Positions 88 through 64,000 of a DNA stretch of 64,000 nt are shown one piece after another. The stretch is from an uncultured Gammaproteobacteria bacterium (lineage in GTDB: Bacteria > Pseudomonadota > Gammaproteobacteria > JASBUN01). The stretch covers positions 592,813 through 656,812 of the forward strand of contig CAWKIK010000003.1 of NCBI GenBank assembly GCA_963849825.1. Direction: 5' to 3'. The position numbers and the translations under genes are program-made. The first letter of the stretch is position 1, and each line of letters begins with the position of its first letter. Below the pieces are notes generated by a model that was given only the letters and a program-made list of their open reading frames with translations, was not told the origin of the DNA and made no database searches.

Positions 88-2610
88 TCATGTGCTGTTC
101 ACCAGCGGAAAACCGGCCAGCACCGCAACGCTGACCGCGGCTGTGATGGCCACGAAGTGCCAGTACAGGGTGACGTTCGCGATGTCGATGTCATACCGCG
201 ACGTGAGCTTGCCGGCGGCGGCGCGCGCGACGCAGTAAAGCTGCATCACGATTCCGGCCGCGACGTGGGCCAGCACCCAGATCACGAATACCCATACCGT
301 TGCAGGATAGACGTGCCGGGCTGGTTGCATGTCGTAAACGAGCGGTCCGGCCACCAACGCGAGGGAGCCACCACCGGCGCACAGCACACCGACGGCCAAG
401 GCGAGGAAGAACGCGCTGCGCCCACCGCGCCCGTTCCAGTACCGCGCCGCGACAGTGAGCGCCCACGCGCTGAGCAGCAATGCTGCTCCGGTGACCGGCC
501 AGACCCAGCCCGGCCCGGCGGCGCCGTCAGGCGGAAAGTCTTCGTGAATGGTCCAATAAAAGAAATAACCGAACACCAACGCTGCGAATGCCGCCATGTC
601 GCCGACCATCGTAATCATCATCGCCCACCACCCCACCGATGGCGGTCCGGACGCATATAGGGGCAAGCTCAAGCCGAGGCCGACGTGCTTTTCATCCTTC
701 TCCGGTATCAATGCGGTGCCGGTCCACAGCCAATAAAGGATCGTCACCAACGCGAGCACGCCGCTGACCAGTGCCGGCCACCACCAGTGAAACGTGGAGA
801 AAATAAATACGCCGCCGGTGAACAACGCAGCGAACAAGGTCATGAAAGTCGGCCCTGGCACGCGCAGACATTGCACCGGATCGGCGTCGATGCTGGTAGT
901 GACCAGGGTCTCGCGTTTGCCTTCTTCCGCGTCGGCGAGATAAAACCGGCCTTCGTCCACATGTTGGACGAGGTCCTGCTGGTCCCACAGCGGATAACGA
1001 CTTTCGATAACGGGAATGGAGCGGGTGCCCCAAGGTTTGTCCGGCATCTCGCCCAGCCATTCCAACGTGCCCGCATTCCACGGATTGCGCTCCGAATAGG
1101 GCTGCTTGCCCTTGGGCCGCACCACATCCCAGACGAATACCAAGAAACCGGCGGCGACGATGAACGCCCCGACCGTGGAAACAAGATTCAAGGTGTCGAA
1201 GCCAAGCCCGGCCGGATAGGTGTAGACCCGGCGCGGCATACCCAACAGGCCGGTGAAATGCATCGGCAAGAAGGCGACGTTGAAGCCGACAAAAATCAGC
1301 CAGAAGGCGATGCGGCCGAGACGCTCGGAAAGCTTTTTCGCAGTGGCGAACGGAAACAAATAATAGAAGCCGGCGATCACAGGAAACACCATGCCGCCGA
1401 TCAGCACATAATGCAGATGCCCGACCACGAAGTAAGTGTCATGGGCCTGAAAATCAAACGGCGCCACCGCCACCATGACTCCGGTGAGACCGCCGAGAAC
1501 GAAGATCGCCAACGCCCCGGTGACATAAAGCATCGGCACGGAATAGACCACGCGCCCAGCCAGCACGGTGGCGAGAAAACAAAAGATCTGCACGCCGGTC
1601 GGAATCGCCACCGCCTCCGAGGCTGCGGAAAAAAAGCCCAGCGAGATCCCGGGCAACCCGGTGGTGAACATGTGGTGCACCCACAGGCCAAAACTGAGAA
1701 AACCGGTGCCCACCGCGGCCAATACGATCCAGCTGTAGCCGACCATTGGCGTACGAGCAAAGGTCGGCACGATCATCGCCACCAGCGCGATCGCCGGCAG
1801 GAAGATGATGTATACCTCGGGGTGGCCGAATATCCAGAACAGGTGCTGCCAAAGCAGCGGGTCGCCGCCGCGCGCCGGATCGAAGAACGGCCAGTCCAGC
1901 ATGCGTTGCAGTTCCAATAACAAGTCGCCGGCGATCAATGGCGGAAACGCGAACAAAATCATTCCGGCGACCACCAGAATGTACCAGGCATACAACGGCA
2001 TCAGATTGATGCGCATCCCTGGCGGTCGGCATTTGAGCACACCGACGATCAACTCCACCGCCGCGGCGATGGACGCCACTTCGATGAAACTCAATCCCAG
2101 CAGCCAGATGTCGGCGCCGACGCCTTCCTGGTACGCGGTGGTAAGCGGCGGATACATGAACCAGCCGCCTTCCGGCGCCGCGTTGAAAAAAATCGAACCG
2201 CACACGAAAACGCCGCCGATCAAGAAACTCCAATACCCATAGGCCGACAGCCGCGGAAAAGGCATGTCCCGTGCGCCCAGCATTTCCGGCATGATCAAAA
2301 TCGAGACTGCTTCGAACATCGGCACGGCGAACAGAAACATCATCACCGAGCCGTGTAACGTGAATGCCTGGTTGTAGAACTGCGGCGAAAGAAAGTCGTT
2401 TTCCGGCACGGCCAGCTGCATACGCATCAACAAGGCAAGCACGCCAGCGAACAGGAAAAAGCAAAACGCAGTGAGCGTATACCATGCGCCCACTTCCGAG
2501 TTGTTGACTGCCGACCAATAGCGCCAACCGCGGGGCATTTCCCATGCTTTGAGCAACCGGGCCGCGGATTCGCGCTGGCGTTTTTGCTCGGTGTCCTCGG
2601 CGCTGCTCAT
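88..2610 (-). CDS. ctaD: cytochrome c oxidase subunit I fused to a subunit III-like C-terminal domain
   Basis: 840-aa ORF with canonical COX1 motifs (WFFGHPEVYIIFLP, HHMFT, VGHLHYVL). A C-terminal ~250-aa polytopic extension resembles subunit III. The ATGA overlap with the upstream coxB gene indicates an operon. Confidence 0.9.
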   Translation of the reverse strand: MSSAEDTEQKRQRESAARLLKAWEMPRGWRYWSAVNNSEVGAWYTLTAFCFFLFAGVLALLMRMQLAVPENDFLSPQFYNQAFTLHGSVMMFLFAVPMFEAVSILIMPEMLGARDMPFPRLSAYGYWSFLIGGVFVCGSIFFNAAPEGGWFMYPPLTTAYQEGVGADIWLLGLSFIEVASIAAAVELIVGVLKCRPPGMRINLMPLYAWYILVVAGMILFAFPPLIAGDLLLELQRMLDWPFFDPARGGDPLLWQHLFWIFGHPEVYIIFLPAIALVAMIVPTFARTPMVGYSWIVLAAVGTGFLSFGLWVHHMFTTGLPGISLGFFSAASEAVAIPTGVQIFCFLATVLAGRVVYSVPMLYVTGALAIFVLGGLTGVMVAVAPFDFQAHDTYFVVGHLHYVLIGGMVFPVIAGFYYLFPFATAKKLSERLGRIAFWLIFVGFNVAFLPMHFTGLLGMPRRVYTYPAGLGFDTLNLVSTVGAFIVAAGFLVFVWDVVRPKGKQPYSERNPWNAGTLEWLGEMPDKPWGTRSIPVIESRYPLWDQQDLVQHVDEGRFYLADAEEGKRETLVTTSIDADPVQCLRVPGPTFMTLFAALFTGGVFIFSTFHWWWPALVSGVLALVTILYWLWTGTALIPEKDEKHVGLGLSLPLYASGPPSVGWWAMMITMVGDMAAFAALVFGYFFYWTIHEDFPPDGAAGPGWVWPVTGAALLLSAWALTVAARYWNGRGGRSAFFLALAVGVLCAGGGSLALVAGPLVYDMQPARHVYPATVWVFVIWVLAHVAAGIVMQLYCVARAAAGKLTSRYDIDIANVTLYWHFVAITAAVSVAVLAGFPLVNST

Positions 2611-3692
2611 TGCAAACCGTCCAGATAGGTCGCCAACGCCTGCAACTCGTTCTGCGCTAATAGATGAAAACTCGGCATGCGCACGCCGGGTTTCACTTCG
2701 CCAGTGCGTCCGATCCAGCGTACGAAGTCGGTGCGCGTGTTACCGAGCACGCCCGCGCCCAAGGTCATGCGACTGCCGACGTGGGTGAGATCGGGACCGA
2801 TTACGCCGTCGGCTTGAGTGCCGCGCACCGTGTGGCAGGCGCCACAACCGTTAGCCAGAAACAAGTCATGGCCCCGCGTCGCAATGGGGCCGGCGGCGGG
2901 GGCGGCGTCCTGGTTCTGGTGCTGCAACCAGACATCGAAGGCATCGGCTTCCATGACCACCACCTGGAAGTTCATCAAGGCGTGGGCCGTGCCGCAAAAT
3001 TCGGCGCAAGCGCCGCGGAAAGCGCCCGTACGGGTGGGCTCCAGCGCAAGTTCGGTCGTGCGCCCAGGGATCATGTCGACTTTGCCCGCCAGGGACGGCA
3101 CCCAGAAGGAATGAATCACATCGGGACTACGAAGGCGCAAACCCACTCGGCGGCCGACCGGCAACCGCAGTTCATTGGCCAGCTCGAAGCTGGCGCCTTC
3201 CGCGGTGCGATAGCGCACCCGCCACCACCAGCGCTCACCGGAAACGTCGATGCGCAAGCCGCCCTCAGGCGCAGGTGCACGCAGTTGCGGGATCAGTTGC
3301 AGCCCATAGACCAGCAGGCCACCCAACACCGCCGTGGGCACGACCGCCCCGCCGCCGACAATCAAACCGGCCGCCAAACGCGGACTGTGGGGATGTTGGC
3401 GCACGCGGGTGGCGTACACAGCCAAGCCGATCACCACCAGCCAGACTACGACCGCGCCGCCCAGCATCCACCAAAACAGCTCTGCGATCGCCTCCGCGCC
3501 GCGTCCTGCCCCGACCAACGCCGATTGCGGACCGTCGCAGCCTGCGAGCAGCAGCGATAACGCTGGTAAAAACCCGACGGTCCGCGCCGCCGCCATAGCT
3601 TCCGTCGTAGAATTTTTCTTGAAGATGGAGTCTTCCTCTCGCGCGGCTACACAGGTCCCGGACGGGAACGGTTGACGGAAACAAGCGCGCAT
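2607..3692 (-). CDS. coxB: cytochrome c oxidase subunit II with C-terminal cytochrome c domain (caa3-type)
   Basis: CuA motif HSFWVPSLAGKVDMIPGRTTEL...CAEFCGTAHALM and a C-terminal CGACH haem c motif. A likely internal start at 3596 (MAAARTVGFLPALSLLLAGC) gives a lipoprotein-type signal peptide. Confidence 0.85.
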   Translation of the reverse strand: MRACFRQPFPSGTCVAAREEDSIFKKNSTTEAMAAARTVGFLPALSLLLAGCDGPQSALVGAGRGAEAIAELFWWMLGGAVVVWLVVIGLAVYATRVRQHPHSPRLAAGLIVGGGAVVPTAVLGGLLVYGLQLIPQLRAPAPEGGLRIDVSGERWWWRVRYRTAEGASFELANELRLPVGRRVGLRLRSPDVIHSFWVPSLAGKVDMIPGRTTELALEPTRTGAFRGACAEFCGTAHALMNFQVVVMEADAFDVWLQHQNQDAAPAAGPIATRGHDLFLANGCGACHTVRGTQADGVIGPDLTHVGSRMTLGAGVLGNTRTDFVRWIGRTGEVKPGVRMPSFHLLAQNELQALATYLDGLQ

Positions 3693-4113
3693 TTCCTCTG
3701 CACTTGTATAGAAACTCCGCGGCCCTGTTCAAACGGGGAGGGAAGTCGGCTTAGCGAGCGGCCCGACCCGCGGTCTCGCCTTGGCGCTGCGCGCCCCGGG
3801 TGCCGGAGTTGCCGATATCGGCAACCATCGTCCAGCCACTTCCGAATTCTGGTTCCCGTTGCTGGGTACTGGGGTCGCGCTGGGCGGCTTTCCGTGGTTG
3901 GCGATGCCCGAGTATCAGTATAATTTCTCCGCTTTCCGATACTGCTCTTGTAGCGCTCGAAGCTGAATTCAGGCTCAAGGCGTTCGCCGCTTGGTTGCCC
4001 GGCCACCGCCACGTCGCGCTCGATAGTAACAGCCACAACTTTCCCGTTATTCATCCAGTCAGGAGTGGGCGACGATTACGGACTACACTTCTCCCGTCGA
4101 GACCATTCGATCG

Positions 4114-4698
4114 ATGCCAAAAGGTGCAACACAAATGAAGCTTCAATTGACACATGGACTGTGGTTGGGGGTGGCACTGGCGGTCACACTGCCGGCAGTC
4201 GCGCAGGATCAAATACGCAGCCAAACCCAATCCGCAACGCCGGAACAAACGCGCGGTCAGCAGATCTACGGTTATCAGCTGATGACGCCCGCTGAAGTCA
4301 GCGCCTACCGAAGCCGTATGGCCAACGCCACTACGGCACAGGAACGGGAACGCATTCGCACCGAACATCATGATCTGATGCAGGCACGCGCGAAGCAGCG
4401 CGGCATCACCTTACCCGAGCAGCCGCCGGCCGTCGGCAGCGGCATGGGTTCCGGCAACGGCATGGGTTCCGGCAGTGGTATGAGCCCGGGCAGCGGCATG
4501 GGTTCCGGCAGCGGCATGGGTTCCGGCAGCGGCATGGGTTCCGGCAGCGGCATGGGTTCCGGCAGCGGCATGGGTTCCGGCAGCGGCATGGGTTCCGGCA
4601 GCGGCATGGGTCCCGGCAGCGGCATGGGTTCCGGCGGTGGTATGAGCCCGGGCAACGGGATGGGTTCCGGCAGCGGCAGCAACCGCGAATCAAATTGA
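4114..4698 (+). CDS. periplasmic Met/Gly/Ser-rich repeat protein with LTxxQ-like N-terminal motifs (putative metal-binding, Spy/CpxP/ZraP-like)
   Basis: Signal peptide MKLQLTHGLWLGVALAVTLPAVA, then LMTPAEV and ITLPEQ motifs, then about 12 tandem GSGMGS units. Confidence 0.55.
   Translation: MPKGATQMKLQLTHGLWLGVALAVTLPAVAQDQIRSQTQSATPEQTRGQQIYGYQLMTPAEVSAYRSRMANATTAQERERIRTEHHDLMQARAKQRGITLPEQPPAVGSGMGSGNGMGSGSGMSPGSGMGSGSGMGSGSGMGSGSGMGSGSGMGSGSGMGSGSGMGPGSGMGSGGGMSPGNGMGSGSGSNRESN
4436..4680 (+). repeat. 18-bp in-frame tandem repeat (GGCATGGGTTCCGGCAGC)n encoding (GSGMGS)n
   Basis: Direct reading of near-perfect 18-bp units, with a few variants (GSGMSP, GNGMGS). Confidence 0.85.
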
Positions 4699-4803
4699 GC
4701 CAATTCTCGTGACGCCAACAAGCTGCGGGGCAATGTCCGGAAGCGAAGTCCGGCACCTGGGCCGGCCATAGGCCGCTTTTGATATGGTGGCCGCCGCGTA
4801 TCC

Positions 4804-5409
4804 TTGAAGCGCCGCGACGCACGTGTAATGTCAACATTCGTCGCTCATGCCGTGGCGGCTTTCGCCATCAGCCGCGCGGCGCCGCAACGACTCGGGCGGC
4901 GACGCACTGTGGTCTGGGCCGCGATGATGTGCGCCTGCGCGCCCGACCTCGACGTCGTCGCCTTCGCCTTCGGTTTTCCCTATGGCCACGCCCTGGGACA
5001 CCGCGGATTCAGCCACTCATTGCTGTTTGCCATACTGCTGGCGGCGGTGGCCGCATTCTGGCTTGCACGCCGCGAGCGGCTCGGCCGCGGGCTCGGCTTT
5101 GGTTTGCTGTTACTGCTGTTCGTTGCCACCGCGTCCCACGGTCTGATTGATGCCATGACCAACGGCGGTCTGGGGGTTGGATTTTACATCCCCTTCGACA
5201 ACGCGCGTTATTTCCTGCCCTGGCGACCGTTGGTGGTCCCACCCCTCGGCGTGGCGCCGATGTTCAGCGCCTGGGGGTTCGCAGTGGTGCAAACCGAGCT
5301 CCTGTACATCGGATTGCCGAGTCTTGTAGTCAGCTTTGCCGCCTGGTCACTCCAGCGTAACCGTCAAAGCACGGTTTCGAAACCCTCGAATTGGGGCGGC
5401 CCGAGATAG
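4804..5409 (+). CDS. membrane-bound metal-dependent hydrolase, DUF457/YdjM family
   Basis: Polytopic small protein with conserved His/Asp pattern (HALGHRGFSHS, HGLIDAMTNGG). The start is uncertain: TTG at 4804 or ATG at 4828. Confidence 0.55.
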   Translation: MKRRDARVMSTFVAHAVAAFAISRAAPQRLGRRRTVVWAAMMCACAPDLDVVAFAFGFPYGHALGHRGFSHSLLFAILLAAVAAFWLARRERLGRGLGFGLLLLLFVATASHGLIDAMTNGGLGVGFYIPFDNARYFLPWRPLVVPPLGVAPMFSAWGFAVVQTELLYIGLPSLVVSFAAWSLQRNRQSTVSKPSNWGGPR

Positions 5410-5666
5410 ATATCTTTCGCCGCGCCGGCTTGCGCATGGGCTTTGCGAAACGCTTCGGATTTGGTCCAGGCCTCGAACGAGGCGCGCGAATCCCACTCCG
5501 AATGGGAAGCGAACAAAGTGGCGGTCTCGTCGCTGGGCCCGCGCAAAAGTTGGAATTGTTTGAACCCCGGTACTCGATCCAAAAAGGTTTCCCGCTGGCG
5601 CCAGACATCGACGAATTCTTCTTCCCGGCCGCGGGCGACTCGAAAGCGATTCATGGCGATGAACAT
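5364..5666 (-). CDS. antibiotic-biosynthesis-monooxygenase (ABM) domain protein
   Basis: Start ATG at 5666 is supported by an AGGAG Shine-Dalgarno 6 nt upstream. The ~100-aa product (MFIAMNRFRVARGREEEF...WDSRASFEAW) fits the ABM fold. The longer track ORF extends to 5840 without support. Confidence 0.7.
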   Translation of the reverse strand: MFIAMNRFRVARGREEEFVDVWRQRETFLDRVPGFKQFQLLRGPSDETATLFASHSEWDSRASFEAWTKSEAFRKAHAQAGAAKDIYLGPPQFEGFETVL

Positions 5667-5782
5667 CGGTTGCTCCTGTGACAGGCTATGATGGCAGAAC
5701 GTCCAGCCTAGCCGACTGGCGTCACGCTCGCGACAGGAAGTAGCACCCTGAAACGCGTCGTTGATTACCGCACGCCGAGTCG

Positions 5783-57836: not shown

Positions 57837-58502
57837 ATGATGAATAACAATCAACGCATTCTGGCGCTGTTCGCCAGCATCGCAATGTGGCTGGTATCTG
57901 CACCGGCGAACGCGGTGGTGATGTTCTCCGACAATTTCGACGCCGACGTTACCGGCCTGAACGCCCCGGGCGGGCTGATCAACTGGACCATCGACAACGG
58001 CACTGTGGATGTCATCCACTCTGGTTCGTACAGCATTGATTGCGTCGGCGGCACCGGCAAGTGCATCGACATGGACGGCAGCACCGGTAACGGCGGGCGC
58101 ATCATCTCCAAGCAGACCTTCACGCTGCTGCCCGGCCAGACCTGGAGCTTGAATGGGCTCATTTCGGGCAATCAGCGGGGGACCGTGACGGGAGACACCT
58201 GGATCGCGGGGTTCGTGGATGCGGCCACCCTGGCTTTCGTCGCTTCGGCCAGCGGTACGGTCGCCAGTTCCGACCCCTACACGAGCCACGGATTGACACT
58301 GAGCTTTGGCAGCCCGACGACACTGCGCGCGTTCTTCGAGGACCCGGGCATCGACAACATCGGGTTTATCCTGGACGATGTGACGCTGGAGTGCCGGGGC
58401 ACTGCCTGCGCCGCCGCCAGCGTCCCGGAACCGGGCATGCTCGCACTGCTCGGCGGCGGCCTGATGGGGTTGGCACTGAATCGTCGCCGACGCCGGCGCT
58501 GA
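57837..58502 (+). CDS. PEP-CTERM sorting-domain protein (putative exosortase substrate)
   Basis: Signal peptide. C-terminal VPEPGMLALLGGGLMGLAL followed by RRRRRR. Confidence 0.8.
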   Translation: MMNNNQRILALFASIAMWLVSAPANAVVMFSDNFDADVTGLNAPGGLINWTIDNGTVDVIHSGSYSIDCVGGTGKCIDMDGSTGNGGRIISKQTFTLLPGQTWSLNGLISGNQRGTVTGDTWIAGFVDAATLAFVASASGTVASSDPYTSHGLTLSFGSPTTLRAFFEDPGIDNIGFILDDVTLECRGTACAAASVPEPGMLALLGGGLMGLALNRRRRRR

Positions 58503-58727: not shown

Positions 58728-59264
58728 TCATTCCCCCGCAACGCCCGGATCATCCGCCACCCGACCGGCCCAATCCGCCTCGACCAGGCCCGCTTCCACA
58801 TATCGGTGAAAGCTCGAATAGGGCCATTCCACCGCAGCACGCACGTACCCGTGTTTGACCGGGTTGTGGTGAACATATTCGACGTGGCGGGCGAGGTCGT
58901 GGTCGTCGCGCAACGTATGTTCCCAATACCGATGTTGCCACACCGCTTGTTCGCCGCGTGCGGCCTGGGCATGGGTGGGCTGACGTCGCAATGAAGGGTC
59001 ACAATGGCGCGTGAACCAAGTTTTGATCAATCGCCAGCGGGTCGCGTAATCGGCGTCGCCAAACGGCATGGTCCATACGCAATGCAAATGGTCGGGCAGC
59101 ACGACGATTGCGTCCATCGAGAATGGGTATTTCGCGCGCACCGCTCGGAACGCATTGCGCAGGACGTCGATTGAGTTTAACCGGGTTAAGACCGGGGTTC
59201 GCTTCGCGGTCACCACGGTGAAAAAGAATCGTCCGCCCGGTACGAAATTGCGGCGGTATTGCAT
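58728..59264 (-). CDS. REP-associated tyrosine transposase (RAYT, IS200/IS605-like HUH transposase)
   Basis: HUH motif LPDHLHCVW and catalytic Tyr region YVHHNPVKHGYV. REP elements flank both sides. Confidence 0.85.
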   Translation of the reverse strand: MQYRRNFVPGGRFFFTVVTAKRTPVLTRLNSIDVLRNAFRAVRAKYPFSMDAIVVLPDHLHCVWTMPFGDADYATRWRLIKTWFTRHCDPSLRRQPTHAQAARGEQAVWQHRYWEHTLRDDHDLARHVEYVHHNPVKHGYVRAAVEWPYSSFHRYVEAGLVEADWAGRVADDPGVAGE

Positions 59265-59293: not shown

Positions 59294-59528
59294 TGTCGGG
59301 TTACGCTGCGCTAACCCGACCTACGTTTACATCATTGCATTTTTTTGCGCATATTGTCGGGTTACGCTGCGCTAACCCGACCTACGACGATCAATGCGGC
59401 CTTCGTCATTGCGTTTGTTGGCGCTGTTGTCGGGTTACGCTGCGCTAACCCGACCTACGGTCGGTGGTCATCGTGGCTGCGGTGCTGGATTCGGGAACGT
59501 CGGGTTACGCTTCGCTAACCCGACCTAC
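59294..59528. repeat. array of 4 same-orientation REP elements at 61-73-bp spacing (BIME-like) upstream of the RAYT gene
   Basis: GTCGGGTTACGCT[G/T]CGCTAACCCGACCTAC at 59294, 59355, 59428 and 59500. Confidence 0.8.
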
Positions 59529-59728
59529 CCCGACCTACGACGATCAACTCGCCTTACGTGTTGGCGACGCTGCGCTGCAATAACAGGGTCGATTGCTTTT
59601 CCCCGCTCTCCGGCTAAGCTTGCGAAGCCCGCTTGAACTGGCGATGCGCGAAGCGGGATCGCGCTTGTCAGGTTTCCAATCGGGAGGCGGGATGATTTCT
59701 CTGTAGCTCGTTGCATGATGAGGTATGG

Positions 59729-62700
59729 ATGCCTGCCATTGACGGCAAGCTGGTCTCCACCGCCGACGGTGTTTCGGTCGAGAACTACGCAGTTCGGGCC
59801 GATCTGTTCGTCGAGCTGACGTTGGAGCCCGACAGTGGCGACGCCACCAGCATCCTTGCGCCCGTCTCCGGCTCTGCACGCGCGGCTGCCGATGGCAGCT
59901 TTCACATTGCCTTCGATGTCGACGGTGAGCTGCAAGGACCGGTGCAAGTCACTGTCTCCGCGCCCAACGGTATCGTGGTCGATCGGCGCGCGTTGTCCCT
60001 GGACGACATCGCCAATCCCGTCGAGCTGCGCATCCAGCCCACACCACCGTTCACCGTCGATGAAAGCGATCTGCCCGGTTTGGGCGAACGCTTGCGGATC
60101 AACGGCCGGGTGATCGACCTGACCGGGCAGCGGGTGCCGCCGAAGCTGCCGGTGGTGATCTGGGGCGTGGATCTGGTCGATGGTGATACACCGCCGCCCC
60201 GCCCATTGCTGGTCACCGAGACTCAGGTCGACGGCGCCTTCAGCGGCGACTGGCCCGAGGATCGTCTGGCCGACGCGTTTGGCACGGTGTCCGGCGGCGA
60301 GCCGGTGCCGGTGCCTCTGGACGACCAGTCGCGCCTGGTGCGCGACATCATTCTGGTGACGCGGGTCAGCCCCGGCCCTGCCTGCGAGTGCACCGAGTCA
60401 CCGCCGCGGGCGCCGGATGCCAGTGATCTCACCCGCAACCCGGAAGCCTTTTCCCAGGATCTCGGTGGCGGCTGCGTCGACCTGACCGTGCCCAACCGCA
60501 CCCTGGAGGAATACGCCTATTACTTCGTGGTGCGTACTTCCGAACCTTCGATCAAAGGCGTGACCCTGGGCAAGCGGCGCAAGTTGCCGCCGCACCTGTT
60601 GACCGATCTGCTCGGCGTGTCTCTGTCGTCCGTCGCCTTGCGCGGCGCACGGCTGAACTCGGCAACCATCGGCAAGGCGGACTTTGCGCTCGACATCGAC
60701 AGCGCCCGGCGGCTGGTGCGCACCGACGCGGTGCCGCGCCCGGAAGACATCGAGCGCGCCGCCTGGTTGTCGGAAGTCGCCGACACCAAGGGGCTGATCG
60801 ACACCACCCTGCGCGACGAGTCGGCGCGCCAAGTGCTCGACGCCGACACGCCGATCGACTGGGACGAAACGCCGACCATCTATCTCAGCACCGAAATCGC
60901 CTTCGGCCATATCCTGCAGTACCGCGAAGTATGGCGCGCCGACGGGTATTCATTGGGCGATCTGTTGTACTCGCTGCCGCTGGCGCCGGGGCAACGGCGC
61001 CAGATCGCAGTGGTGGACTGGGAACGGCGCACCCGCTCGGCACGTGAGGAGTCGCTGGACTTCGAGGAAACCTTGGACGCGTTGATTGAACGCGACCGCG
61101 ATGTACGCGAAATCGTCGGCACCGACCTGCATGAGCAGACTTCCGCCGGCTCGCGCAATACCACCTGGGGCGCGGCGGGGGGCATCGGCGCCGGTTTCAT
61201 CGGCAGCGGCTTTGGCATCTTCGGCGGCGTTGCCGGCGGCGGCTCGGGCTCCGACACCCATGCCTGGCAGAACTCCGCCCGCCAGTTCTCCGCCGACTCC
61301 CTGCAACAACTGCGCGATCGCATCGGCCAGCGCGCCTCATCGGTGCGCAGCGAGCGCTCCACGGTGATCCAGACCGTGGCCCAAGGCGAATCGATGCGCG
61401 CCGAAACCGAAGTCGTCGCCAACTACAACCGCTGCCACGCGGTGACCGTGGAATACTTCGAAGTGCTGCGCCACTTCCTGGTCACCCACGAATTGGCCGA
61501 CGTGCAGGAATGTCTGTTCGTACCGCTGCCCATCACCCAGTTCGACCGCGGCAAGGCGCTGCGTTGGCGCGAATACCTGAGCCGCTATTTGAAGGACCGT
61601 TCACTGCTGAGCGGCTTCCCGGCCATCGAACGGGTCGCCGACAACTGGGTGGGTTGGGATTATCCGCTGGCGCGCTTCAGCGAAGAAGCGCCCAACGTCC
61701 TGGAAGGCGAGCTGTACGTGAGCTTCGTGCTGCCGCGGCCGCGCGATGCCGATGACGGCAGTTTCCAGCTCGCCGAATGGGAAGCCTATCGCGACGTGCT
61801 GCCGGGCTTCGCACGCCACATCTACAGTGCGCTGATCGAGCAGGCGGTAGCGGCGAACAAAAGCCGCACCGCCGCCCGGGACGAAGCGTTCCAGCGCGAC
61901 GTGGCACCGCAGATCGCCGGCAACTTGATCAACCGCTTGCGACTCGCCTACGTCGGTTCCGACGGCGGTGAGACTGAAGTGCCCTTGGACGGCACGCTGG
62001 TATCGCGCTATCGCGAAGACCTGCCTTTGTATGTCACCTTGAACCCGGCCGGCGACCTGCCGGAAGTGCCGCGGGAGGATATTGCCTATTTCAAGATCTG
62101 GTACGACGGAGAACCGCTGCCGCCGGACGCCAAAGTGATCGTTCACCGCGGTCGGATGCGTTACCGCACTGCGCACATCACCGCACTGTTGTTCGACAAC
62201 GATCGCATTCTCGACGATGTGCGCAACGGCGACCCGGTGTTGGTCGCCACGCCCACCTCGCGCGCCGAGTTGCGCAACCCCCGCGAAGAGGATCGCCAGC
62301 TCGCCGATCGCGTGGTGGCGCACTTGAACGACCACTTGGAGTTCTATCACCAGGCGATCTGGATGAGCCTGGACACCCAGCGCCGCTATATGCTGCTCGA
62401 TGCCATCGAAGTGCCGGGCCAGCAGGGGCGCAGTGTCGCCAGTGTGTGCGTCAACGATTTGCTCGGCATCGTCGGCAACAGTCTGGTATTGCCGGCGGCA
62501 CCGGGCCAACGCCTCAACACGGCGGTGAGTTCCACCGACGAAGCCGGCAAACCGGTCGATCTGCGCAACGCCTATGCGACCCCGCCGGCGCCGCGAATGC
62601 GCTTGAGCGTGCCCACCCGCGGCGTGTATGCCGAGGCGGTTGCCGGCGAGTGCAGCGCCTGTGAAGCCATCGACGAGACCCGCTACTGGCGCTGGAGCGT

Positions 62701-64000
62701 GGAAGGCCTGCTGGCGCCGCCGGAAATCCAGGGCCCGATCGACACCGGCACCCGCGCCAGCGAAGAACCGACCCTGACGCCGACGCCGTTGCCGGCGCCG
62801 TTGGTGTCGATCCAGAACGCCCCGGCGGTCCCCGATCCCTTCGGACTGAAAGCGGCCTTCGAACTGTTGTCCAAGCCGGAACTGTTTCGCGATGTCACCG
62901 GTCTCGAGGGCACGCAGAAGAATGCCGGTGCCGCCTTCGAAGCGGCGTTGTCGGCGGCATCGGCCATGGGCGGCGAGGCGGCCAAACTTGCCCGCCAGCA
63001 GGAATTGACCAAGAACTCCGACCGGGTGGTGGACCGCATCGGCAAAGCGGTGAACGACGAGCTGCTGACGCCGGAGGCAGCGCAGAAACTGACCCAGTCG
63101 TTGCTCGAGGGCCTGACCGGCAAAGAAGAGCCCAAAGCCGAAGCGCCGCTGGACGATCCGGCGGTGAAAAAAGCGGTGGAAGGCATGTCGCAGTCCGACG
63201 GCGGCAACTTGAAGGTGGAATCCTCCGCCGAGACCGTCGAGGTGAGCTTCGATGACAGTGCGCCGGTGGTGGGCTCAGGCAATGCTGTGCCGCGCACATT
63301 GATCCCCGCCGCGCCCCATGACGCCACCGACGTACCGGTGCAGATCGAAGCGAGCTTCATCGGCCGCGCCGATCCCAACAACCCACTTGCCGACGACCTC
63401 ACGCCGTTCGTGTTCGACACCCGCGACGGTCTCGATTTCCTGCTGCGCCGGCAGGCGCCCAACTCCGCCGATCCGCTGGCCGAGCTTGCCGCCATCGGCA
63501 TGCTGCTGCCCGGTCGCGATGCCGACCACTATCGTCTGCGCCGCATGCTGCAAATCGTCTACCCGGCGGATGATCAGACCAACCAGGTGTCCGGCAGCGG
63601 CCCGCTGCCCATCGTGGTCCTGCAACACGGCGCCCACGACTGGATTCGCACCAATCCGCTGCGCTTCGTCGAAAGCTACAAGGGCATGCGTTATCTGCAG
63701 GACGCCCTCGCCGCGCTGGGTATCGTGTCGGTGTCGGTGGATGCCAACGCAGCCAATGTCTTCAACGCCACGCTGGTCGAAATGCGCGCCGCCCTGATCG
63801 TAAGCGCCCTGGACAGTTTGCGCGAGTTGCACAAGTCCGCGGGTTCGGTGCTGCACGATCGGCTCGACTTCTCCCGCATCGGCCTGCTGGGTCACTCCCG
63901 CGGCGGCGACGCCGTGGTACGGGCAGCAAAGCGCATCGCCGCCGACCGCCCCGACTATCGAGTGAAGTTCGTCTGCTCCCTGGCACCGACCGACTTCAGC
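59729..64000 (+). CDS. giant uncharacterized protein, N-terminal >=1424 aa (open at window end), with C-terminal alpha/beta-hydrolase (lipase/esterase-like GHSRGG) region
   Basis: Frame-2 ORF from ATG 59729 (GAGG Shine-Dalgarno 5 nt upstream) to 64000 with no stop. Host-like GC3 bias. Only short antisense ORFs overlap it. Not in the ORF track because it has no in-window stop. Confidence 0.8.
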   Translation, partial: MPAIDGKLVSTADGVSVENYAVRADLFVELTLEPDSGDATSILAPVSGSARAAADGSFHIAFDVDGELQGPVQVTVSAPNGIVVDRRALSLDDIANPVELRIQPTPPFTVDESDLPGLGERLRINGRVIDLTGQRVPPKLPVVIWGVDLVDGDTPPPRPLLVTETQVDGAFSGDWPEDRLADAFGTVSGGEPVPVPLDDQSRLVRDIILVTRVSPGPACECTESPPRAPDASDLTRNPEAFSQDLGGGCVDLTVPNRTLEEYAYYFVVRTSEPSIKGVTLGKRRKLPPHLLTDLLGVSLSSVALRGARLNSATIGKADFALDIDSARRLVRTDAVPRPEDIERAAWLSEVADTKGLIDTTLRDESARQVLDADTPIDWDETPTIYLSTEIAFGHILQYREVWRADGYSLGDLLYSLPLAPGQRRQIAVVDWERRTRSAREESLDFEETLDALIERDRDVREIVGTDLHEQTSAGSRNTTWGAAGGIGAGFIGSGFGIFGGVAGGGSGSDTHAWQNSARQFSADSLQQLRDRIGQRASSVRSERSTVIQTVAQGESMRAETEVVANYNRCHAVTVEYFEVLRHFLVTHELADVQECLFVPLPITQFDRGKALRWREYLSRYLKDRSLLSGFPAIERVADNWVGWDYPLARFSEEAPNVLEGELYVSFVLPRPRDADDGSFQLAEWEAYRDVLPGFARHIYSALIEQAVAANKSRTAARDEAFQRDVAPQIAGNLINRLRLAYVGSDGGETEVPLDGTLVSRYREDLPLYVTLNPAGDLPEVPREDIAYFKIWYDGEPLPPDAKVIVHRGRMRYRTAHITALLFDNDRILDDVRNGDPVLVATPTSRAELRNPREEDRQLADRVVAHLNDHLEFYHQAIWMSLDTQRRYMLLDAIEVPGQQGRSVASVCVNDLLGIVGNSLVLPAAPGQRLNTAVSSTDEAGKPVDLRNAYATPPAPRMRLSVPTRGVYAEAVAGECSACEAIDETRYWRWSVEGLLAPPEIQGPIDTGTRASEEPTLTPTPLPAPLVSIQNAPAVPDPFGLKAAFELLSKPELFRDVTGLEGTQKNAGAAFEAALSAASAMGGEAAKLARQQELTKNSDRVVDRIGKAVNDELLTPEAAQKLTQSLLEGLTGKEEPKAEAPLDDPAVKKAVEGMSQSDGGNLKVESSAETVEVSFDDSAPVVGSGNAVPRTLIPAAPHDATDVPVQIEASFIGRADPNNPLADDLTPFVFDTRDGLDFLLRRQAPNSADPLAELAAIGMLLPGRDADHYRLRRMLQIVYPADDQTNQVSGSGPLPIVVLQHGAHDWIRTNPLRFVESYKGMRYLQDALAALGIVSVSVDANAANVFNATLVEMRAALIVSALDSLRELHKSAGSVLHDRLDFSRIGLLGHSRGGDAVVRAAKRIAADRPDYRVKFVCSLAPTDFS

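Follow-up and report, generated by a model that had tools for sequence, protein, structure and literature searches.

The end of a 64,000-nucleotide (nt) stretch of DNA from an uncultured Gammaproteobacteria bacterium (contig CAWKIK010000003.1, positions 592,813 to 656,812; hereafter the window) carries the first part of a giant gene, gene A, whose product is a member of a very large superfamily in which a constant body is joined to swappable C-terminal tails. We propose, with a probability of roughly 0.4, that this family comprises self-contained, polymorphic-toxin-like effector-delivery proteins acting against other cells, in which the body would be a delivery or anchoring device and the tail the payload. 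An original prediction, made by a model from the letters of the window, had seen a likeness to polymorphic toxins in gene A; the likeness is stronger than claimed, as one body occurs with about 50 unrelated C-terminal tails.

The open frame that starts at ATG 59729 is a real protein-coding gene. On the forward strand it runs to base 64000 for 1,424 codons without a stop, which has a chance probability of 2.4e-19 at the base composition of the window, and the GC content at its codon positions 1, 2 and 3 is 0.69, 0.47 and 0.82, respectively. Open runs in the other five frames over the same region reach 557 codons at most, and the closest upstream in-frame stop ends at 59695. A database protein, P0001 (1,839 amino acids, aa), is identical to the translated frame (100% identity over 100% of the query) and begins at the same methionine, so that 77% of a real gene, counted from its 5' end, lies within the window. 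The original prediction had described both the giant stop-free frame and its GC-rich third codon positions, and it had correctly attributed the omission of the frame from the list of open reading frames (ORFs) to the lack of a stop within the window: the frame is missing there because it runs off the window. The features of gene A in the window are the following.

59719..59722, + strand: Shine-Dalgarno-like GAGG, 6 nt before ATG 59729, read from the sequence
59729..64000, + strand: gene A, 5' part, aa 1-1424 of 1,839 (77%), cut by the window end
59729..60358, + strand: aa 1-210, two tandem beta-sandwich domains (transthyretin, CarboxypepD_reg or CnaB-like)
60365..60598, + strand: aa 213-290, Cys-containing motif C.C..PPRAPD..DL..NP.AFSQDLGGGCVDLT.PNR.LEE
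60824..61468, + strand: aa 366-580, most conserved stretch of the family (DW..PT, HGH, WRADGYSLGDLLYSLPLAPGQ, NYNRCHA.T.EYFEVLRH)
61166..61249, + strand: aa 480-507, uncharged glycine-zipper segment WGAAGGIGAGFIGSGFGIFGGVAGGGSG
61466..62608, + strand: aa 580-960, compact alpha/beta domain of 380 residues, predicted local distance difference test (pLDDT) score about 85-95
62609..62848, + strand: aa 961-1040, motif PTRGVYAEAV.G.C..CE.ID.TRYWRW with CxxC, followed by a Pro-rich linker
62849..63118, + strand: aa 1041-1130, long helices 1060-1109 and 1115-1129 (DSSP), end of the conserved body
63518..64000, + strand: aa about 1264-1424, N-terminal half of the alpha/beta-hydrolase tail
63896..63898, + strand: codon of Ser1390, predicted nucleophile of GHSRGG, aligned to the GHSRGG of 9xg1

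The conserved body spans about 1,170 residues, with the interchangeable enzyme at its C-terminal end. A first database search gave 756 matches among 8,000 candidates scored, and full-length relatives of 1,700-1,900 aa are found in Pistricoccus (85% identity), Micromonospora, Parafrankia, Kitasatospora, Mycobacterium, Actinomadura, Rhizomicrobium, Bryobacterales and Kofleriaceae. When the core (aa 360-1180) was compared exhaustively by phmmer with 1.84 billion representatives of 50%-identity clusters, 3,481 of them matched at E ≤ 1e-3, of which 1,499 did so at E ≤ 1e-30; the matched proteins are about 1,100-2,600 aa long, and the superfamily thus has a minimum of 3,481 clusters. The core family is present in Gammaproteobacteria, Alphaproteobacteria, Actinomycetota, Acidobacteriota and Myxococcota; more distant copies, at 29-37% identity, are carried by plasmids of Caballeronia, Psychrobacter, Polaromonas, Bacillus, Streptomyces, Nostoc, Ruegeria, Novosphingobium and the haloarchaeon Haladaptatus, and the family crosses domains of life. 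The member on the Nostoc plasmid (H47) is from a cyanobacterium, and the Haladaptatus plasmid copy (L095 7290-11363) is a 1,357-aa core member with a DUF2272 tail, located among PIN, Fic and helix-turn-helix genes.

The two ends of the core differ markedly in variability. Upstream of it, 244 of the 247 sampled heads fall into one BLAST cluster, and a signal-peptide-like N-terminus is seen in 1 of the 247 members, so that the absence of a signal peptide, originally noted for gene A, holds family-wide. P0188, P0191, P0199, P0232, P0233 and P0242 form a subgroup with an extra N-terminal ComEA-like helix-hairpin-helix (HHH_3) module, which hints at DNA binding by the head, if not at some other function. 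Downstream of the core, the tails form about 50 mutually unrelated BLAST clusters. Full-length scanning of tail representatives matched 21 Pfam families, mostly tail enzymes; among them are peptidoglycan hydrolases (Amidase_2, Glyco_hydro_25, Muramidase, Peptidase_M23, Peptidase_M15_4), proteases (Peptidase_C70, Peptidase_C11), wall-binding modules (PG_binding_1, OmpA) and others (Glyco_hydro_75 chitosanase, Tyrosinase, DUF2272, DUF4056, DUF5675), and many tails have no Pfam match whatever. Most of the identifiable tail enzymes normally act outside the cytoplasm, on walls, surfaces or proteins. Since the same body is combined with dozens of unrelated enzymes, it is the body, not the hydrolase, that defines the family.

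In gene A itself the tail is a hydrolase. The original prediction had proposed an alpha/beta-hydrolase core with the motifs VVLQHGAHDW (aa 1296-1305, nt 63614-63643) and GHSRGG (aa 1388-1393, nt 63890-63907), and database matches bear this out. The Pfam profile PETase (PF12740) matches aa 1314-1403 over profile positions 64-146 of 263 (E 1e-5, 25.3 bits versus a gathering cut-off of 28), and the NCBIfam BHET hydrolase profile reaches 20 bits versus a cut-off of 520. The best PDB match of the tail is 9xg1, a 'Protein-asparaginase', with E 1e-11 for the part within the window, 1.2e-17 for the full tail as a single sequence and 7e-27 for the family profile, of which positions 1264-1732 align to chain residues 167-656. 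Past the window, the tail continues with the catalytic Asp and His and a further approximately 350 aa, and the Ser-Asp-His triad anticipated downstream of GHSRGG is found in P0001: a nucleophile elbow GxSxG, an Asp and a His are present in canonical order, with GHSRGG (Ser1390), QDNDVS (aa 1450-1455; Asp at about 1452-1454) and CNHNRF (His1488) aligning with motifs of 9xg1. Conservation of all three motifs, including G, H and G of GHSRGG, is 90% or higher among 107 relatives. At the level of sequence, the tail is thereby confirmed as a predicted Ser-Asp-His alpha/beta-hydrolase.

The affinities of this hydrolase lie elsewhere than first suggested. In place of the proposed likeness to PAF-acetylhydrolases, cutinases and Tle-type lipases, the tail is closer to the solved protein-asparaginase 9xg1, to which it is homologous over about 470 profile positions, with the GHSRGG, D.DVS and NHN.FN motifs aligned, whereas PETases and cutinases match only its central 85-90 residues or so. 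The 793-residue chain of 9xg1 matches the tail of gene A only and leaves the body unmatched; a search of the literature found no paper on 9xg1. The substrate of the tail may be a protein amide, an ester or polyester, or a lipid. No match to the hydrolase tail was obtained on plasmids by tblastn with a 433-aa stretch of it. That gene A is merely a large polyethylene terephthalate (PET) hydrolase, cutinase or lipase with accessory domains, as its database names imply, is a reading to which we give next to no credence: it is backed by the NCBI and UniRef names 'alpha/beta hydrolase' and 'PET hydrolase family protein' and by the weak PETase and BHET-hydrolase matches, but both of these stay under their cut-offs, the hydrolase makes up less than a quarter of the protein, the identical body type bears dozens of unrelated enzymes, and the closest solved relative is no PETase. 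As a description of the family, the plain PET-hydrolase label is contradicted.

The body has no recognised counterpart. Pfam, NCBIfam, PADLOC and PHROGs gave no match in the first 1,260 or so residues of the gene A product, PDB sequence and profile searches matched its tail only, and no description of the body family was found in the literature by locus tags of named relatives or keyword combinations, all of which agrees with the original prediction, which recognised no described family. Its anatomy was derived from an AlphaFold2 model of residues 1-1200 (44 sequences, mean pLDDT 65, secondary structure by DSSP) and from conserved columns in 107 sequences. The model is confident over the two beta-sandwich domains at aa 1-210, which would form a surface- or receptor-binding head. 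The N-terminal 450 or so residues had been described as beta-rich; beta-sandwich domains are indeed present, but they are confined to aa 1-210. The middle, described before as long, helical and Ala-rich, is instead mostly the compact alpha/beta domain of aa 580-960, for which no recognisable fold relative was found, and long helices occur at aa 1040-1130 or so only. This last helical segment (pLDDT 50-75 over aa 1041-1130) marks the end of the region shared with a paralogue, C, described below.

Model confidence is lowest where conservation is highest, namely at aa 390-580 and aa 960-1040. The former shows dense invariant columns, yet in the monomer its pLDDT stays below 50 from aa 408 to 580; the latter, also below 50, has T963, G965, C975, E979, D982 and W987 invariant and C978 near-invariant. 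High conservation together with poor modelling as a monomer is a hint that these two segments may fold only in an oligomer or upon conformational change. At aa 213-290, where pLDDT is low to moderate, D244, C249, P255, R257, E261, R269 and P273 are invariant or near-invariant. Invariant or near-invariant Cys and His residues of the body are located at aa 569-570 (CH of NYNRCHA), aa 595 and C975-x-x-C978 (nt about 61433-61438, 61511-61513 and 62651-62662), and their conservation suggests a metal site or disulfides.

Within the most conserved stretch lies the Gly-rich, zipper-like segment that the original prediction had singled out. It holds 14 Gly in 28 residues (aa 480-507), no charged residue and seven GxxxG motifs, and it is conserved and uncharged throughout the family: over 210 relatives, the equivalent segment contains, as median values, 12 Gly, 0 charges and 6 GxxxG, and its placement between two invariant motifs is constant in spacing. 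Helices predicted by DSSP at 444-463 and 518-539, in the low-confidence part of the model, flank it, and paralogue C gives a weak match to C19orf12, a glycine-zipper family of Pfam. With these properties, it is a putative membrane-insertion or oligomerisation element.

In relatives, gene A heads a three-gene cassette: A, ending in the hydrolase, is followed by B (94-111 aa) and then by C (about 1,330-1,440 aa), with gaps of a few bases between them. The cassette is found in two metagenome-assembled genomes (MAGs) 94% and 92% identical to the window and, with unrelated flanks, in Pistricoccus, an Actinomycetota MAG, a Bryobacterales MAG, Rhizomicrobium and Micromonospora. Partner genes beyond the window had been expected, and close relatives do have them; where a chaperone, an immunity protein or a component of a type I secretion system, a type VI secretion system (T6SS) or an exosortase system had been proposed, they encode a protein of about 100 aa with an IPT/TIG fold (B) and a paralogous giant (C). 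The C protein, of 1,410 aa, shares 42% identity with A across aa 365-1172 and 37% across the beta-sandwich head, and ends in a Peptidase_C70 domain (AvrRpt2 family; 52-56 bits versus a cut-off of 19, in three phyla); it had no match in the PDB. Orthologues of A in Gammaproteobacteria and Actinomycetota share 55% identity, above the 42% between A and C in one genome, and their flanks are unrelated; judged from these identities, the duplication that gave A and C is older than the spread of the cassette, which moves as a unit.

Among 79 metagenome loci, in which single core genes are common, 18 have the hydrolase-B-C70 arrangement, in addition to truncated versions, and not one of the 54 single genes that end in C70 or another tail is accompanied by B. 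A variant with DUF4056 lacks B, its A' being followed directly by a C-type gene. Genes in the loci were called heuristically; B, for example, was overlooked in L003, although Pistricoccus has it as P0127. In the MAG that is 92% identical (L002 9872-15531), gene A is split by frameshifts into ORFs of 1,215, 173 and 107 aa, with B and C intact, which reflects either assembly errors or a decaying copy. At L089 686-2557 (- strand), an IPT-like B is fused to Tyrosinase and DUF7868 in a 624-aa protein beside a hydrolase-tailed core gene; the small partner can thus also carry an enzyme. The IPT fold of B, its tight coupling within the operon between A and C, and its fusion to a tyrosinase would suit a structural adaptor. 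A role of C70 as a releasing protease acting at AvrRpt2-like sites is unsupported, as neither A nor C contains a PxFGxW motif.

Based on this organisation, we propose the following hypothetical sequence of events for effector delivery: (i) the protein would be made without a signal peptide; (ii) its beta-sandwich head would attach to a cell surface; (iii) the glycine-zipper hairpin and the conserved, poorly modelled segments would assemble into oligomers, probably an A/C hetero-complex with B as the bridge, and insert into a membrane; (iv) the enzyme tail would thereby be placed at, or passed to, the envelope or proteins of another cell and attack them. In this scenario no dedicated secretion apparatus would be needed, and in the present cassette a hydrolase and a protease would be delivered jointly. 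The tail repertoire and its polymorphism favour antagonism. Haloarchaea are not known to have murein, and should DUF2272 degrade peptidoglycan, as may be surmised from the remaining tail types, its presence in haloarchaeal members favours an action on other organisms. A bolder form of this proposal, which we regard as rather unlikely, is that A-B-C constitutes a self-sufficient translocation machine of two paralogous subunits of approximately 1,400-1,800 residues with a new fold and an IPT bridge, whose glycine-zipper element would let it export itself or enter a target membrane, carrying swappable enzymes across without Sec, Tat or a dedicated secretion system in monoderms, diderms and archaea alike.

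Several points weigh against effector delivery. Export, membrane insertion, oligomerisation and toxicity are predictions from sequence and model; the helical hairpin in particular depends on a weak part of the model, because aa 390-580 have a pLDDT below 50, and the glycine segment reaches only a modest hydropathy, with a Kyte-Doolittle peak of 1.33 over 19 residues. The B and C of this genome are predicted from relatives 94%, 92% and 85% identical. A tyrosinase is atypical as a toxin payload. The strict linkage of B to hydrolase tails and its position just 3' of them would also fit an immunity protein, and no gene recurs after C70 or other tails, where an immunity gene would be expected for classical polymorphic toxins. 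Orphan tail cassettes, likewise typical of classical polymorphic toxins, were absent when 360 tails were compared by tblastn with about 95 loci, the only tail-like sequences outside core genes being a frameshifted copy and the B-tyrosinase fusion. Finally, some distant plasmid members lie among defence or toxin-antitoxin genes, which an anti-phage role fits equally. The apparent absence of immunity genes is compatible with wall-active payloads that are unable to reach the producer's own wall from outside, and the missing immunity genes and cassettes match the polymorphic-toxin-like effectors without either that were described by Zhang et al. 2012 (PMC3482391).

The same absence of immunity genes, together with neighbours that are ordinary metabolic or regulatory genes, would also be expected if the body were a non-antagonistic scaffold that displays enzymes at the producer's surface or in its surroundings, for envelope remodelling, matrix turnover or the scavenging of nutrients from dead-cell lysis, chitosan, polyesters and proteins. 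The tails resemble secretome enzymes (cutinase-like hydrolase, chitosanase, tyrosinase, peptidoglycan hydrolases, proteases), some members contain PG_binding_1 and OmpA wall-binding modules, and the beta-sandwich heads are adhesin-like. However, the swapping of tails on a constant body, the patchy distribution and the transfer of the cassette between phyla are hallmarks of conflict systems, ordinary secreted enzymes have the signal peptide that is missing here, and a highly conserved body of 1,170 residues is excessive as a tether. We consider such a scaffold unlikely.

The gene neighbourhoods bear on two further explanations. When all neighbours in about 90 loci were clustered, no recurrent neighbour but B emerged. 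The 148 immediate neighbours matched 132 different Pfam families, the commonest being LuxR/GerE, extracytoplasmic function (ECF) sigma factors, AraC and response regulators. T6SS, contractile injection system (CIS), phage structural or other secretion genes showed no recurrence in the roughly 90 loci, and Pfam and NCBIfam revealed no trafficking domain in the body. One case of an Hcp neighbour was seen and none in about 90 other loci: on the 5.9-kb contig of P0131, a T6SS Hcp gene (5274-5780) lies 94 nt past the end of the gene for a 1,551-aa core protein (525-5180) whose tail is unannotated. Weakly recurring neighbours of the LuxR, pentapeptide-repeat, GGDEF-HD, tetratricopeptide-repeat (TPR), short-chain dehydrogenase/reductase (SDR), methyltransferase and ECF sigma types were rejected as generic and mostly from related contigs. 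In some loci without B (L006 8900-10004, L036 2791-4126, L045, L049 and L053), a LuxR/GerE-type regulator and an unannotated protein of 110-150 aa are encoded just upstream of the core gene and may be a dedicated regulator pair. A paper on 'diffusible killing' in Ruegeria that mentions a glycine zipper deals with a gamma-butyrolactone cluster and has no connection to the family.

These surroundings make it highly improbable that the family is cargo or a component of a phage-tail-like apparatus encoded elsewhere, be it a T6SS, an extracellular CIS, a virion-associated lysin or a tape-measure-like protein. The amidase, muramidase, M23 and lipase-like hydrolase tails do mirror T6SS effectors and virion-associated lysins, one member has the Hcp gene immediately downstream, and B, at about 100 aa, usually alone and once extended by an enzyme, recalls by general analogy the logic of PAAR proteins; yet the fold of B is IPT and not PAAR, no T6SS, CIS or phage structural gene recurs, and the family is abundant in Actinomycetota, which are not known to have T6SS. 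It is also nearly absent from viral contigs and phage records: one locus was found in 2.9 million IMG/VR contigs and one unverified record among 50,697 GenBank phage records, both among cellular genes or beside an integrase with no structural genes near, and A, B and C had no match in PHROGs. A phage origin was rejected in view of this near-absence and of the cellular-gene or integrase context.

A further alternative is an anti-phage abortive-infection protein. Here the body would sense infection and open a pore in the producer's own membrane, and the tail, be it a lysin, a lipase or a protease, would destroy the infected cell from inside, much as in a fusion of holin and endolysin. Such a protein would have only the cytoplasmic membrane to cross, which accords with the missing signal peptide and would explain one design in monoderms, diderms and archaea; the swapping of effectors is common in defence systems, and L011 adjoins an integrase. 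Distant plasmid members, moreover, stand beside TIR, PIN, SIR2, restriction, DUF262, Fic and integrase genes. These single-gene relatives, in accessory regions of Polaromonas pH8NP2 (L092), a Bacillus tropicus plasmid (L093) and Psychrobacter pP32BP2 (L091), are surrounded by TIR, PIN, DUF262, type I restriction, PDDEXK, SIR2, AAA+helicase and Fic genes, with an integrase or recombinase directly downstream of the core gene in L092 and L093 and a recombinase further downstream in L091. A defence-like context is, however, limited to the distant plasmid copies: A, B and C had no match in PADLOC-DB 2.0 at E ≤ 0.1, and the 148 immediate neighbours in the main family gave sparse PADLOC matches to generic domains and two integrases. 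Chitosanase and tyrosinase tails would find no target inside a bacterium, and if DUF2272 is a murein hydrolase, haloarchaeal hosts, by what is generally known of their walls, would offer it none either. On balance we judge abortive infection improbable, and effector delivery against other cells remains our preferred explanation.

Upstream of gene A, the window contains the elements that the original prediction had reported, all of which are present.

57837-58502, + strand: PEP-CTERM protein of 221 aa with C-terminal sorting motif (Pfam 28.9 bits versus a cut-off of 20.7)
58728-59264, - strand: ORF of a Y1 transposase like the tyrosine transposases associated with repetitive extragenic palindromic (REP) elements (RAYT; Pfam Y1_Tnp, E 9e-5, right at threshold)
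59295-59529: REP array of four palindromic copies GTCGGGTTACGCTGCGCTAACCCGACCTACG, spaced 61-73 nt, beside the RAYT-like ORF

The flanks of gene A homologues in other genomes are unrelated, so that the RAYT/REP elements and the PEP-CTERM gene are incidental, and no linkage of a PEP-CTERM gene to gene A was found in other genomes.

If the proposed reading is true, thousands of proteins now named 'hypothetical' or misnamed 'PET hydrolase / alpha/beta hydrolase' would be one undescribed effector-delivery family that covers most soil bacterial phyla and extends to archaea. The family could make it testable how large folded enzymes exit or enter cells without a dedicated apparatus. Its tails offer a ready collection of enzymes that act on envelopes, with lysins, a chitosanase, proteases and a relative of a protein-deamidating enzyme (the hydrolase), which could serve as antimicrobials or biocatalysts, and genome mining for PETases will collect its members as false leads.

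Several known systems combine comparable parts. Bacteriocins of the colicin and pesticin type have receptor-binding, translocation and C-terminal killing or lytic domains and no signal peptide, and the tail of pesticin is a muramidase. The logic of head, membrane-active middle and enzyme, the missing signal peptide and, in several family members, a muramidase tail are shared with them; in contrast, the gene A product is 5-10 times larger, has no similarity to them in sequence or fold, lacks an adjacent lysis gene and a clear immunity gene, and has relatives in monoderms and archaea too. Large clostridial and MARTX toxins are giants in which an internal cysteine protease frees effector domains. 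They resemble the family in size, in having no classical signal peptide, in a membrane-translocation region (predicted here) and in a cysteine protease (the C70 of C), but here the enzymes are C-terminal, the reverse order, C70 is not the inositol-phosphate-activated cysteine protease domain, and there is no homology. Tape-measure proteins and virion lysins of the T5 Pb2 type are long and join a membrane-active hydrophobic segment to an M23 or lysozyme domain at the C-terminus. Common to both is a long protein that pairs a hydrophobic or glycine-rich segment, membrane-active by prediction in our case, with a C-terminal peptidoglycan hydrolase for breaching an envelope, whereas our family is nearly absent from phages, has no phage genes near, draws a blank in PHROGs and is not predominantly coiled-coil.

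The closest parallel is with polymorphic toxins. A constant N-terminal body with variable C-terminal enzymes, some of them peptidases or wall-active enzymes, and a patchy spread across phyla that is consistent with lateral transfer are features of both (PMC3482391). The concept of a polymorphic effector is already known, while the body, the A-B-C cassette and the apparent independence from secretion systems are undescribed within the libraries and literature searched. In contrast to polymorphic toxins, the body of this family is free of Rhs, filamentous haemagglutinin, LXG, PAAR, VgrG or other trafficking or stalk domains (Pfam), no clear recurrent 3' immunity gene, orphan cassettes or linked secretion system accompany it, and the unit consists of two paralogous giants and an IPT protein.

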